Assembly (NCBI GenBank): GCA_052055015.1
Contig: JBQJIT010000086.1
Reading direction: 5' to 3' (one strand)
Source of the DNA: Malassezia furfur
Taxonomy: Eukaryota
DNA: 32,212 nucleotides
Shown: one piece after another, positions 3,295-9,910 of the stretch
How the letters are laid out: each line of letters starts with the position of its first letter
Numbering within the stretch: position 1 is the stretch's first letter
Notes under the pieces: generated by a model
Database searches by the model: none
What the model saw: the letters and a program-made list of their open reading frames with translations, nothing else
Told to the model about the DNA's origin: nothing
Position numbers and translations under genes: made by a program

Positions 3295-6200
3295 CTAAGA
3301 TTGAGCAGGTAGTACATGGAATGCATGGAATGGAGTTGGAGATTCAACTGACCACTCAAGTGATGATGCATGTCCACCTTCTAGCCAATATACTGGAGTA
3401 GATTCAAAGAATCCTGGTACTTCCCATGGGTTAGCTTCAGCTTCTTCACCATATGCAAGTGCATCGTAAATTGTATATGCAAATACAAAGATAGCAGCAA
3501 GTGAAATTAGACTACCTACAGATGAGATAGTGTTGTATGGTGTGAAAGCATCTGGGTAATCAGGGATACGTCGAGGCATACCTGAGATACCTAGGAAGTG
3601 TTGTGGGAAGAATGTTAGGTTAACACCAGTAAATAGAGTCCAGAAATGGATTTTACCTAGTGTTTCGTTATATGTTTTACCAACGATTTTTGGGAACCAG
3701 TAGTAGAATCCCGCAAATAGTGCAAATACAGCACCCATTGATAGAACATAGTGGAAGTGAGCAACTACATAGTAAGTCAATTAGTAATAGAATATATTAT
3801 AAATATATTGTAAACATGGACACTATCTTCACAGATAGGATCGGACCATATCTTCAAATAATAAATAAAGAGTATTTATAATATTATTTGTGCTACGTAT
3901 GGCCTCTACGGTTTCTAATGAGTAATGAATATAATAATATATTATTAATGTATAATCAAATCATTAGTTACCACGGTATTGTCTTAATAAAGAGTTGCTT
4001 AAATAATATCTAGCCCAGATAGATTTTATTAAGATTTCACCGTTAGCATATTTATTTCTCTTTCTATCTTTCTATCTTTCAAAAGAAAGAAAAAGAAGAT
4101 AAAAAATAAAAATAAATATACCGAGAGTATAGTCCAAGATAACTCTCATAGTAGCATGACAACATGACACTTTTTAATTTATTATTTAATTATTAAATTA
4201 TTAAATTATTTAATAAGATAATTTAGTTTAGGATTATTTTGAATAAAATTACAAAGTTGTACGAATTGATATCCTTGAAGAATAGGTTTGCAATGTTGAA
4301 CAACTTTAGTAATATCATTAATAGATTCAAAAGAGATTACATAAATGCAGTCTTTATTAGTATTTTTGGAATATTTGATTTGGATTTTAGCATTTGTATT
4401 GTAGAATTTTAGAATAGCATTCATAAGATATTTATCATGAGTTTGATCAATACTAAATGAATAGTTTTTATTCATCTTTTGAATAGAGAATGAACCTTTA
4501 GCTTCAATAAAACCAGCTAGCCATTCATTAAAATAGAAGGGAATATTATTAATAAGACTAAAATCCTTATTTTGTTGATCAAATTTATTCTTTTTTGTTT
4601 GGATATATTCTTGAACATTGGAATGATTCATACAATTAATTAGAAATAGTAGTTGGAAATGAAATCGAGATGTAAGAGGTGGATATTTTTTTAGGATTGG
4701 GATTAGTTTATTTTGGATATGATTTTTATCATTAACAGTTCATTGTACAAATTGTTGATTCTTATTATTGGTAACAGATGTAAGAGATCCTACCATAATA
4801 ACGATGAACAGTTTTAAGCATATCATAATTAAGTGGTTTATCACTAAGTTTGATAACAAATCGATATTGAAGACATTTCATTTTCCAATGATTAACTTGA
4901 ATAGAACCATTGCCTTCAAGTAGACCTACAAAGAATCGATCAAATTGATCTTTAGTTAGTTTATTTGGTTTAAATAGATTTTTCATAGTAAATAAGATGA
5001 ATAGTAGATTATTTCTCTTTTGTGAATAATAATAAATTAAAGTTTATCATGTAGGGCAATATCAAGACTAGCATTTGATAGTGTAATACCTGTTACACCA
5101 CCGATTGTAAATAGTGCTAGGAATCCAATAGAGAATACCATTGGTGTGTATAGTCGAACTGAACCACCGTAGATTGTAGCAAGCCAACTGAAGATTTTAA
5201 TACCTGTTGGTACACCAATAATCATTGTTGCGGCAGTAAAGTAAGCTCGTGTATCTACATCTAGACCAACTGTGAACATATGGTGTGCCCAAACTAGACA
5301 ACCAAGTGCACCAATTGTAGCCATAGCGTAAACCATACCAAGGTATCCAAATACTGGTTTAGATGAGAATGTTGCAATAACTTGACTAATAATTCCGAAT
5401 CCAGGAATAATTAGGATGTATACTTCAGGATGCATAAAGTAAAATGGACTATATCATCAACAAAAGAATGAATAATAAATAATAAAGAATAATACTAATA
5501 ATAAGTAAAATAAAGAATTGATAATTCAGAAATAGAATTCCATTTATTCATAAAATAAATCCAAGCTTTATGATGAATATTATTAGGTTTATATGCTTGA
5601 AATTGAATAAGATGATAATATTTTTTAATAAGATAGAATCGTTTAGCATTACAACTTCGTAGTACATGGTTTTTAGAATAATTATAGAATGTTATATGAT
5701 CTGTAAAAGATTGAATAGACCATTGATAAAATCCATTCTGACTTTTATCGAAATGGATTTGACCACCAAAGGTTTTAAGATATTCATGAATATTTTTATA
5801 TTCTTTATCTTTAACTTGGATAATAAGTTTAGGATTATCTGAAGATGTAAGATAAATAGAACCTTTAGCATCAAAGAATCCAGCAAACCATGATGAATGA
5901 ATATCAAGATTAATTGGCATAGTAGGTTGAATATTAAGTTTATGACAAATAGCATGTAGTTGATGGATACGTTTAGAATGTTGAATATAACCATTAACAC
6001 GATGAACAATTTGGATTAGTGTATCTTTATTTTGAATACGATATCGGTATGCGTTAGCACCAGCACGTAGTTTAATAGATCCACCAAATTGATTTTGAAT
6101 ATATCGAAGCATTTTAATATTATGATGATTAACAATGATTTCAAGTGAGCAATGATCTTTTTTAGAAATCATAAAACAACCATTACCATCAATAATACCT

Positions 6201-9200: not shown

Positions 9201-9910
9201 TTATTAGAAATAGTAAAAGTACCAGAACCATCGGTAATACCAACGAACCATTTAGCAAAATGATCAAAAGAATTATTTGATTTAGAAAATAGACTATAAA
9301 ATGCATTACGTGTAGTCTCTGATGGTTTAAATTGAATATGATTAAACCAGGCAGATTGTCCTCATGTTGATGACATTTTTACATAATTATATTGAGATAG
9401 TAGATTAGTAGTCATCTTCGTGCATAGGTTCGATTTAAGATAACGATTATGCTTGAGGAGTTTTCCGCATCGAGTAATATTTTTAGACAGCTTATCCTTA
9501 ATATAGCAATAATAATAGGACATATTAACTGTCCATCCAGGACCAGCACCGTGCTCAACAAGAGCACTAGCGATTAGAAGGATTAGGCTAGGAGGAAGTA
9601 GCCAGAAACTAATGTTGTTTAGTCGAGGCATAGCCATATCAGGAGCACCAACCATTACTGGTACGAAGTAGTTACCAAAACCACCCATTAGAGCAGGCAT
9701 AACCATGAAGAAAATCATAAGGAATGCATGAGCAGTAATGATAACGTTAAATAGATGATGGTTACCAGCAAGAACTTGTGTACCAGGTGCAGATAGTTCC
9801 ATACGGATAAGTACAGAGAATGCAGTACCTGCAAGACCTGAGAATACAGCAAAGATAAGGTAAAGTGTCCCAATGTCTTTAGCATTAGTAGAATAAAGCC
9901 ATCGTGTCAT
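3295..9910 (-). CDS. cox1: Cytochrome c oxidase subunit 1, six exons: 9910-9528, 8367-8139, 7896-7803, 6549-6539, 5432-5046, 3777-3295 (1587 nt, 528 aa)
   Basis: Exons join in frame to give [14 protein letters not shown]...GWTV/YPPLS...[13 protein letters not shown]...HLFW/FFG/HPEVY...[13 protein letters not shown]; each intron follows an exon T and ends in G. Confidence 0.97.
3778..5045 (-). mobile_element. cox1 intron 5, group I (probably IB) with LAGLIDADG ORF
   Basis: Interrupts LHD/TYYV; T|...G| boundaries. Confidence 0.92.
4206..4986 (-). CDS. Intron 5 double-motif LAGLIDADG protein, split by a +1 frameshift (extra A at 4791) and an in-frame TGA (4740-4742); recoded gene or young pseudogene
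   Basis: Motifs [11 protein letters not shown] and [14 protein letters not shown]-track pieces 4765-4986 and 4206-4631 join via YYG-[A][16 protein letters not shown](TGA)TVNDK...KYPPLTSR. Confidence 0.8.
5433..6538 (-). mobile_element. cox1 intron 4, group I (probably IB; FFG/HPE site, equivalent to yeast aI4)
   Basis: Interrupts FFG/HPEV; T|...G| boundaries. Confidence 0.92.
5495..6538 (-). CDS. Intron 4 double-motif LAGLIDADG protein, open and in frame with exon 4
   Basis: Motifs [12 protein letters not shown] and [12 protein letters not shown]; no stop between the end of exon 4 (6539) and the ATG at 6427. Confidence 0.9.
   Translation of the reverse strand, partial: YISLWPFVDGYNYFNLTSNYAVCWNDLQYQFNPDINVMPTNSVSNLFSILIVSKYNIHTNTFLNSKNGLTKIQSAGNQRYVSNQSDLPNLVGTSETTRVTTKDNNNSFNQWLAGIIDGNGCFMISKKDHCSLEIIVNHHNIKMLRYIQNQFGGSIKLRAGANAYRYRIQNKDTLIQIVHRVNGYIQHSKRIHQLHAICHKLNIQPTMPINLDIHSSWFAGFFDAKGSIYLTSSDNPKLIIQVKDKEYKNIHEYLKTFGGQIHFDKSQNGFYQWSIQSFTDHITFYNYSKNHVLRSCNAKRFYLIKKYYHLIQFQAYKPNNIHHKAWIYFMNKWNSISELSILYFTYY
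6550..7802 (-). mobile_element. cox1 intron 3, group I (probably ID) with LAGLIDADG ORF
   Basis: Splits the TGG codon of HLFW; core at ~6655-6770 resembles both cob introns. Confidence 0.92.
6920..7780 (-). CDS. Intron 3 degenerate double-motif LAGLIDADG protein with one in-frame TGA (7424-7426)
   Basis: Motifs [12 protein letters not shown] and [15 protein letters not shown]-track pieces 7424-7780 and 6920-7225 share a frame with only the TGA between them. Confidence 0.82.
7897..8138 (-). mobile_element. cox1 intron 2, 242-nt ORF-less group I intron
   Basis: Interrupts VLAG/AITM; core elements (GCTGGAAA, AATCAGCAGG, GACTACACG, AAGATATAGTC) present. Confidence 0.92.
8368..9527 (-). mobile_element. 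cox1 intron 1, group I (probably IB) with LAGLIDADG ORF
   Basis: Splits the Val codon of GWTV/YPP; T|...G| boundaries. Confidence 0.92.
8453..9527 (-). CDS. Intron 1 double-motif LAGLIDADG protein in frame with exon 1, with three in-frame TGA codons
   Basis: Motifs [12 protein letters not shown] and [12 protein letters not shown]; one frame from exon 1 to TAA at 8453, with TGA at 9362-9364, 9185-9187 and 8861-8863. Confidence 0.85.

Follow-up and report, generated by a model that had tools for sequence, protein, structure and literature searches.

Of the five group I introns in the mitochondrial cox1 gene of Malassezia furfur, four contain an open reading frame (ORF) of the double-motif, monomeric LAGLIDADG type, and in each of these four ORFs both motifs lack the acidic metal-binding residue found in active enzymes of the family. 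The ORFs, called i1, i3, i4 and i5 after their introns, were studied in a stretch of 32,212 nucleotides (nt) of M. furfur DNA (assembly GCA_052055015.1, contig JBQJIT010000086.1), the whole of which is referred to here as the window; cox1, its introns, ORFs and motifs all lie on the minus strand. The explanation that we hold with modest confidence, from sequence and precedent, is that the four ORFs encode catalytically dead LAGLIDADG proteins under relaxed purifying selection, most likely splicing maturases similar to the bI3 maturase of yeast. They would descend from LAGLIDADG homing endonucleases of group I introns long resident in Malassezia cox1; each would have lost both metal-binding acids, and hence DNA cleavage, in the M. 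furfur lineage, and would still be decoded by the mitochondrial ribosome under relaxed purifying selection. The proteins would then bind their own intron RNA and aid its folding and splicing, as the bI3 maturase and I-AniI do, and cox1 expression would have come to depend on them. The spliced cox1 is intact, so the introns must splice; the putative maturase role itself is argued entirely from the precedent of bI3 and I-AniI. The strongest cases are i4 (clean frame, no TGA codon) and i1, whereas i3 is eroding and may be on its way out.

The two motifs of i1 read FVGITDGSG (9221-9247; position 8 is S, codon TCT) and LVGFTEVQG (8777-8803; Q, CAA), those of i3 FIGFSEGNL (7637-7663; N, AAT) and ISGFIDSNA (7328-7354; N, AAT), those of i4 LAGIIDGNG (6179-6205; N, AAT) and FAGFFDAKG (5861-5887; K, AAA), and those of i5 FVGLLEGNG (4906-4932; N, AAT) and LAGFIEAKG (4494-4520; K, AAA). 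All eight motifs have G at position 3 and D or E at position 6, and six of them have G at position 9. HMMER alignments set the S and Q of i1 and the K of i5 opposite the D and E of the GDG and AEG segments in I-HjeMI and I-AniI. The original prediction, that every motif has lost its position-8 acid, that the D/E of position 6 is kept and that the lost residue is the catalytic one, is supported in all three respects. Its count of eight losses in eight motifs is right insofar as all eight are non-acidic, but not as eight independent events, because the loss of the first acid frees the second, and the four ORFs are therefore a fairer count than the eight sites. At the level of sequence, the eight-motif pattern exceeds chance and is far from the norm of the family.

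An active LAGLIDADG endonuclease carries the acidic metal-binding residue at position 8 of both motifs, and none of the four ORFs has it in either. From the alignment to solved enzymes and the precedent of bI3 we infer that none of the four products would be able to cleave DNA. It is very improbable that the nucleases are still active, whether through mRNA editing back to the acid or through the position-6 D/E acting as a substitute. Six of the eight codons (four AAT and two AAA) are a single A-to-G step away from GAT or GAA, and the position-6 residue is acidic in all eight motifs; however, an A-to-G change cannot make TCT or CAA acidic, so editing cannot restore all eight sites, the core genes are read correctly from the DNA without editing, and active enzymes also have the position-6 acid. 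Single D-to-N mutants of I-CreI are inactive, which also counts against residual activity. The same is true of bI3: according to the available text of PMC3173205, replacement of a catalytic Glu by Lys abolished its endonuclease activity altogether, and the protein acts as a maturase only.

Alignment with homologues, which had been proposed as a check on the prediction, was carried out for all four ORFs (queries: i1, i3, i4 and the C-terminal part of i5), and both acids proved to be the rule in their families. With the query counted as a row, the 121 rows of the i1 family comprise 96 with D/E, two with E/E and six with both positions non-acidic, and the 121 rows of the i4 family comprise 105 with D/D, six with D/E and four with N/K; without the query, both acids are present in 98/120 and 111/120 rows respectively. 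The six non-acidic i1 rows are the query, a M. furfur protein, the N/N proteins of M. yamatoensis and M. psittaci, and two others, so that four of the six are from Malassezia. The N/K state of i4 is confined to the query and its three closest matches (identities of 96–97%, 97% and 78–80%), and a relative at 73–75% identity is D/D. The i3 family is small (14 rows), with D/E or E/E in nine rows and N/N in the query, M. furfur and M. brasiliensis. For i5, whose alignment consists of the query and the 70 best of 150 listed representatives, the second motif carries E in 56 of 71 rows, K in 11 and other residues in four, and the first motif, where recognisable, appears to be GDG in most rows (an informal impression and not a systematic count). 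The closest relatives besides M. furfur, where their state is known, are in part dead and in part equipped with both acids.

The loss appears to have happened repeatedly. The best match of i1 is a M. furfur protein (97% identity), followed by proteins of M. yamatoensis, M. psittaci, M. vespertilionis, M. caprae and M. sympodialis. In a tree of 62 of the 121 i1 rows (the query, P0001-P0060 and P0104; FastTree, LG+gamma, midpoint root, with no support values printed), M. furfur (S/Q) is joined first by M. vespertilionis (D/E) and only then by M. psittaci and M. yamatoensis (N/N). A D/E species therefore lies between the S/Q and N/N lineages, which implies at least two losses of the i1 acids if this topology holds. 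Together with i3, i4 and i5, and on the same condition, at least five disarming events of differing depth would have taken place in this group of species. The parallel loss that had been predicted is thus corroborated, by the split of the two i1 lineages and by the D/D state of the 75%-identical relative of i4.

The second line of evidence is codon use, and it bears on whether the ORFs are still translated. In the core genes of the window (3864 codons in 13 segments, within 292-2298, 3295-3777, 9533-9910, 10558-11319, 14167-16176, 21654-25794, 27889-29861 and 30448-31992), the codons TTA, TTG, AGA, AGG, ATA and TGA do not occur at all; Leu is always CTN, Arg always CGN, and Trp is TGG in all 56 cases. 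ARAGORN found no tRNA for Leu, Arg, His or Cys within the window, and the available parts of the Malassezia mitogenome literature locate trnL, trnR, trnH and trnM beyond the window, on an inverted repeat. Our literature search returned no paper describing a reduced codon set in Malassezia. The same avoidance extends to the intron ORFs, in whose bodies TTA, TTG, AGA, AGG and ATA make up 4 of 1208 in-frame codons compared with 398 of the 2406 read out of frame (Fisher p 1e-68). TTA and CTA stand at 1:45 in the reading frame, at 145:74 out of frame and at 73:25 where these introns are non-coding. A single transition, synonymous and in a genome rich in A and T, turns CTA into TTA; such avoidance therefore requires continuing selection on decoding, and it is taken here as the best available stand-in for the ratio of nonsynonymous to synonymous substitution rates (dN/dS). 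The claims that the ORF bodies use the CTN Leu and CGN Arg codons of the host and that they are under selection are both strengthened by these counts, which constitute a strong signature at the level of translation. The reduced codon set of this mitochondrial genome also offers a cheap way to tell whether an ORF is still translated.

These counts also bear on the most serious competing explanation, namely that the ORFs are endonuclease genes in the phase of degeneration and without function, the catalytic losses being merely the first hits and the codon signature a leftover of recent activity. This appears unlikely, although it deserves more weight than any other alternative. A cycle of invasion, fixation and decay of homing endonuclease genes is described in the available text of PMC2647301, and loss of a key catalytic residue is an accepted class of degeneration of LAGLIDADG homing endonucleases in that of PMC13190283. 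A leftover signature is, however, difficult to reconcile with a TTA to CTA ratio of 1:45 kept next to intron DNA at 73:25, and both halves of the interrupted i5 are free of host-unused codons, apart from the AGG at the interruption itself.

The age of the dead state argues in the same direction. The i1 proteins of M. yamatoensis and M. psittaci are both N/N and both of full length (347 and 351 amino acids (aa)) at 72% identity, and i4 and its homologue P0123 are both N/K at 80% identity. In a neutral simulation on the i1 DNA (300 runs with substitutions only, ignoring indels, which favours the neutral model), the frame remained free of stops in 29/300 runs at 90% identity, in 5/300 at 78% and in 0/300 at both 60% and 50%. 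Additionally, the differences that separate dead sequences from one another still avoid the conserved columns: i4 and P0123 differ in 18/149 conserved compared with 14/46 variable columns (p 0.006), and the i1 proteins of M. yamatoensis and M. psittaci in 22/104 compared with 36/103 (p 0.03). The pattern of loss fits this picture as well: many of the lost conserved residues are K or R, and the changes in the core are conservative (such as L>I, V>I and Y>F). Codon use, diverged open frames and site-wise constraint thus indirectly point to a relaxed yet real purifying selection on the ORFs, against which stands the decay seen in i3 and i5. Such relaxation would be expected if DNA recognition and catalysis were free to drift while the fold stayed, and according to the available text of PMC2647301 a maturase role exposes the fold to 'partial' selection without doing so for every nuclease residue.

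Several observations weigh against continued function and, in part, directly favour decay. The proteins in databases are open frames by construction, which biases any comparison of surviving frames, and the constraint between the two dead i1 proteins (p 0.03) is much weaker than that between M. caprae and M. sympodialis, whose i1 pair keeps three of the four catalytic acids and differs in 8/104 conserved compared with 40/104 variable columns (p 1e-7). The window ORFs keep 76/104, 108/153 and 46/70 of the conserved columns (66–73%), where the reference medians are 0.92, 0.94 and 0.86. The branch leading to M. furfur in the i1 tree is long, with a root-to-tip distance of 1.08 compared with a median of 0.56. 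ORF-less introns occur in relatives at positions 383, 612, 706 and 717 (M. slooffiae), 706 (M. sympodialis) and 717 (M. nana) according to Table S2 of PMC10113387, and in this genus such introns may therefore splice even where they encode no protein of their own. The structure models of i1 and i4 described below add little to the case, because the underlying alignments consist mostly of active homologues.

The in-frame TGA codons belong to the same side of the argument. TGA accounts for 5 of the 21 Trp codons of the ORF bodies (three in i1, one in i3 and one in i5); it is confined to these three ORFs and absent from the core genes. At the three i1 sites W stands in 86, 115 and 113 of the 120 homologues, at the i3 site in 8/13 homologues and at the i5 site in every one of the 61 rows with a residue at that point, and these TGA codons are therefore meant as Trp. 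The efficiency with which i1, i3 and i5 are translated is nevertheless uncertain, because the only tRNA-Trp seen in the window (26126..26197, plus strand; ARAGORN) has the anticodon CCA and because the core genes avoid TGA. Another tRNA-Trp might lie in the part of the genome beyond the window. A 4-bp anticodon stem, an idea taken from the available text of PMC13092985, was considered as a route to UGA reading and rejected, given that the loop CTCCAAA of this tRNA is closed by a 5-bp stem. The mitochondria of Schizosaccharomyces combine an encoded C34 tRNA-Trp with rare UGA Trp codons (available text of PMC7200024), and Malassezia would be a further case of a CCA tRNA-Trp next to such codons. 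The original prediction mentioned neither the TGA codons nor the +1 frameshift of i5.

This frameshift divides i5 into an N-terminal part (4792-4986, 65 codons, with the first motif) and a C-terminal part (4206-4790, with the second motif and the one TGA), the junction being GGT-A-GGA near 4790 (about 4786-4796). Full-length homologues read FGGSLTYY across the junction, whereas the old frame of i5 reads AGG at the shift, which is the only in-frame AGR codon of any ORF body; the 65-codon N-terminal part is also stop-free. Two relatives of the C-terminal part in the database (58% and about 50% identity) start with MVGT, which is readable only from the same shifted junction, and an old origin of the shift is therefore possible. 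The +1 shift could be programmed, at a codon for which there is no tRNA, the protein could be made in two pieces, or the shift could have arisen by chance. The N-terminal part matches PF00961 with E 9.3e-5 (23.7 bits, cut-off 23.1) and the C-terminal part with 1e-14; i5 also matches I-AniI (5.6e-18) and the bI3 maturase (6.1e-10).

ORF i3 shows signs of erosion as well. The ORF extends from the ATG at 7780 to the stop at 6920, with a body at about 7058-7780 that contains one TGA, and it matches PF00961 with E 2.4e-12. Only 13 homologues were found, among them a M. furfur protein (97% identity) and the N/N protein of M. brasiliensis (76%), and the latter ends at 164 aa, just past the second motif. 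Both motifs have lost the position-9 glycine, which is replaced by L and A. The last 46 codons of the 286-aa ORF (6920-7057) hold eight host-unused codons, whereas residues 1–241 hold none, the TGA aside; this tail looks non-coding, and the functional frame probably ends near residue 241, though no stop codon is present there. The claim that the losses are not random decay is consequently too strong as originally worded: the codon signature and the parallel loss speak for it, and the i5 frameshift, the missing glycines, decayed tail and truncated homologue of i3, and the relaxed constraint speak against it.

The two remaining ORFs are fused in frame to the exon upstream, the arrangement of yeast maturases, whereas i3 and i5 are free-standing. 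ORF i1 continues exon 1 to a stop at 8453 and includes the three TGA codons at Trp positions; it matches PF00961 (E 1e-27), I-HjeMI (4.3e-28), I-AniI (1e-25) and the bI3 maturase structure 2ab5 (1.3e-17). ORF i4 continues an 11-nt mini-exon to a stop at 5495 and, having neither a TGA codon nor a frameshift, can be translated whichever code applies; it matches PF00961 with E 4.7e-13 and has 485 homologues, including endonucleases of plant cox1 introns. AlphaFold2 (AF2) models predict for both ORFs, with confidence, a two-domain LAGLIDADG fold, with a mean predicted local distance difference test (pLDDT) score of 87.2 for i1 and of 81.8 for i4, in which most of residues 71–300 exceed 90. Foldseek searches with the i4 model returned I-OnuI and I-SmaMI as top matches (E ~1e-12) and also I-PanMI.

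A broader proposal would join these elements, namely that the furfur-yamatoensis group turned its whole set of cox1 endonucleases into splicing factors that serve the host, through at least five disarmings, and that deliberately leaky decoding (UGA by a CCA tRNA-Trp, and the +1 shift of i5 at AGG, a codon not otherwise used in this mitochondrion) acts as an attenuator that keeps the maturases scarce; we regard this as improbable.

The overlap of ORF and RNA sequence has to be considered as well. The sequence TCAGAGACTACA occurs in introns 1 and 4 (9311-9322 and 6248-6259), within the N-terminal leaders of i1 and i4, and introns 2, 4 and 5 have sequences similar to GATATAGTCC close to their 3' ends, with the intron 4 copy at 5446-5455; we take both to be elements of the group I core. 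In the leaders TCAGAGACTACA translates to SETTR, a peptide that varies little or not at all across the protein alignments, although AF2 shows this segment as disordered. Its conservation at the protein level probably reflects a constraint on the RNA. It is conceivable on these grounds that the frames are kept only through their overlap with the RNA core, or that the dead nucleases serve a role other than splicing, such as binding of DNA at the cox1 locus for recombination, replication or copy control; the latter idea gains from the bI3 maturase, which still binds the DNA site of I-AniI with high affinity (available text of PMC3173205). Both variants are improbable, since many conserved K and R residues are lost, which would argue against a retained DNA recognition, and the RNA overlap is limited to the leaders whereas the codon avoidance extends over folded domains of about 240 residues.

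The window as a whole is mitochondrial DNA of the M. furfur type. Rfam detected large and small subunit rRNAs of bacterial type, an rnl group I intron and tRNAs, of which ARAGORN counted 17; the ORF list includes nad1-6, cox1-3, cob and atp6, and one further ORF matches the fungal mitochondrial VAR1/rps3 family with E 6.5e-47. The cox1 gene (3295..9910) consists of six exons (9528-9910, 8139-8367, 7803-7896, 6539-6549, 5046-5432 and 3295-3777), which when joined by coordinates give 1587 nt, or 528 codons and a stop, with zero internal stops and with canonical peptides at the junctions (GWTV|YPPL, LAG|AITM, HLF|WFFG|HPEVY and LHD|TYYV). A T at the end of the exon precedes, and a G ends, all five introns, and their positions in the coding sequence (383, 612, 706, 717 and 1104) are those of Table S2 in PMC10113387, where the cox1 introns of Malassezia are typed as IB or ID.

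Intron 1 (8368..9527) measures 1160 nt and intron 2 (7897..8138) 242 nt; the latter is ORF-less by junction analysis and ORF list, and its position (612/621) is reported in the available texts of PMC8510979 and PMC10113387 to hold an ORF in some strains and not in others. Intron 3 (6550..7802, 1253 nt) and intron 4 (5433..6538, 1106 nt) are separated by the 11-nt mini-exon GGTTCTTCGGT (6539..6549), which was accepted because the sequence LF-WFFG-HPEVY requires it. The available text of PMC8510979 describes introns 3 and 4 as a single intron with two ORFs; this arrangement was rejected here, the mini-exon fitting both the junctions and the positions of Table S2 in PMC10113387, in which 706 and 717 already imply it. 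Intron 5 (3778..5045) is 1268 nt long and holds i5 in its two frames. The Rfam model Intron_gpI gave zero matches over 3700-9600 at E up to 1, where only a chance snoRNA match appeared, and this may be attributed to the inserted ORFs; the identity of the cox1 introns therefore rests on their boundaries, the short core-like sequence matches, and the literature table. Elsewhere in the window, an ORF-less group I intron (17847-18181, minus strand, Rfam 84.3 bits) is situated within or close to the gene for the large subunit rRNA, whose match covers 18516-20895, and cob is split too (27889-28683 and 29466-29861).

LAGLIDADG proteins that act solely as maturases have been described in a few cases from yeast. 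If the preferred reading is true, a single gene would hold four of them, at stages that may be called clean, UGA-laden, split and eroding, and the related Malassezia species in which these ORFs are still of the active form would provide a natural series from DNA enzyme to RNA chaperone in which the order of residue changes could be followed. It would also correct the annotation of these ORFs, which the available texts of PMC8510979 and PMC10113387 call putative homing endonucleases without mention of the catalytic residues. Our literature search, which did not extend to the supplements of PMC8510979, found no paper that notes, for Malassezia, a maturase role or the loss of the catalytic residues. 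Dead, maturase-like ORFs are a known fate of such genes and what is new is the cox1 set of Malassezia, a tidy natural series rather than a surprise.

Among the known systems, the closest is bI3, the maturase of the third cob intron of Saccharomyces cerevisiae (2ab5), which is likewise a double-motif LAGLIDADG protein of a mitochondrial group I intron; i1 and i5 are its direct relatives, and the acid-to-Lys change known from it recurs in the second motif of i4 and i5. It differs in having lost one acid, whereas each of the Malassezia ORFs has lost both, in its host gene (cob instead of cox1) and in that its splicing activity has been shown, whereas that of the present ORFs is a prediction. bI3 also requires the nuclear protein Mrs1. 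I-AniI, the endonuclease and maturase of a cob intron in Aspergillus nidulans, falls into one subfamily with i1 and i5; unlike these, with S/Q and N/K, it keeps both acids and cuts DNA. The aI4-type endonucleases of cox1 introns, including the horizontally spread angiosperm ORFs, are 45–50% identical to i4 (Cucumis, Geranium, Perilla) and carry both acids in 111 of 121 rows, unlike i4 and its three nearest relatives with N and K. The site of i4 (WFFG|HPEVY) is presumably the one that aI4 (I-SceII), which encodes a latent maturase, occupies in yeast. Kinship to proven maturases is thus direct for i1 and i5, through their matches to I-AniI and bI3, and for i4 presumably runs through the aI4-type family; no link to proven maturases was found for i3 among its 13 homologues. 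With the degenerate endonuclease genes of Goddard and Burt the four ORFs have in common the loss of catalytic residues, and in i3 and i5 decay has gone further. Under plain degeneration, however, stop codons, shifted frames and a lost codon adaptation would be expected throughout, and i1 and i4 have none of these. That one LAGLIDADG fold can serve RNA splicing is documented for I-AniI in the available text of PMC2647301, and it is this capacity that the Malassezia proteins may have kept.

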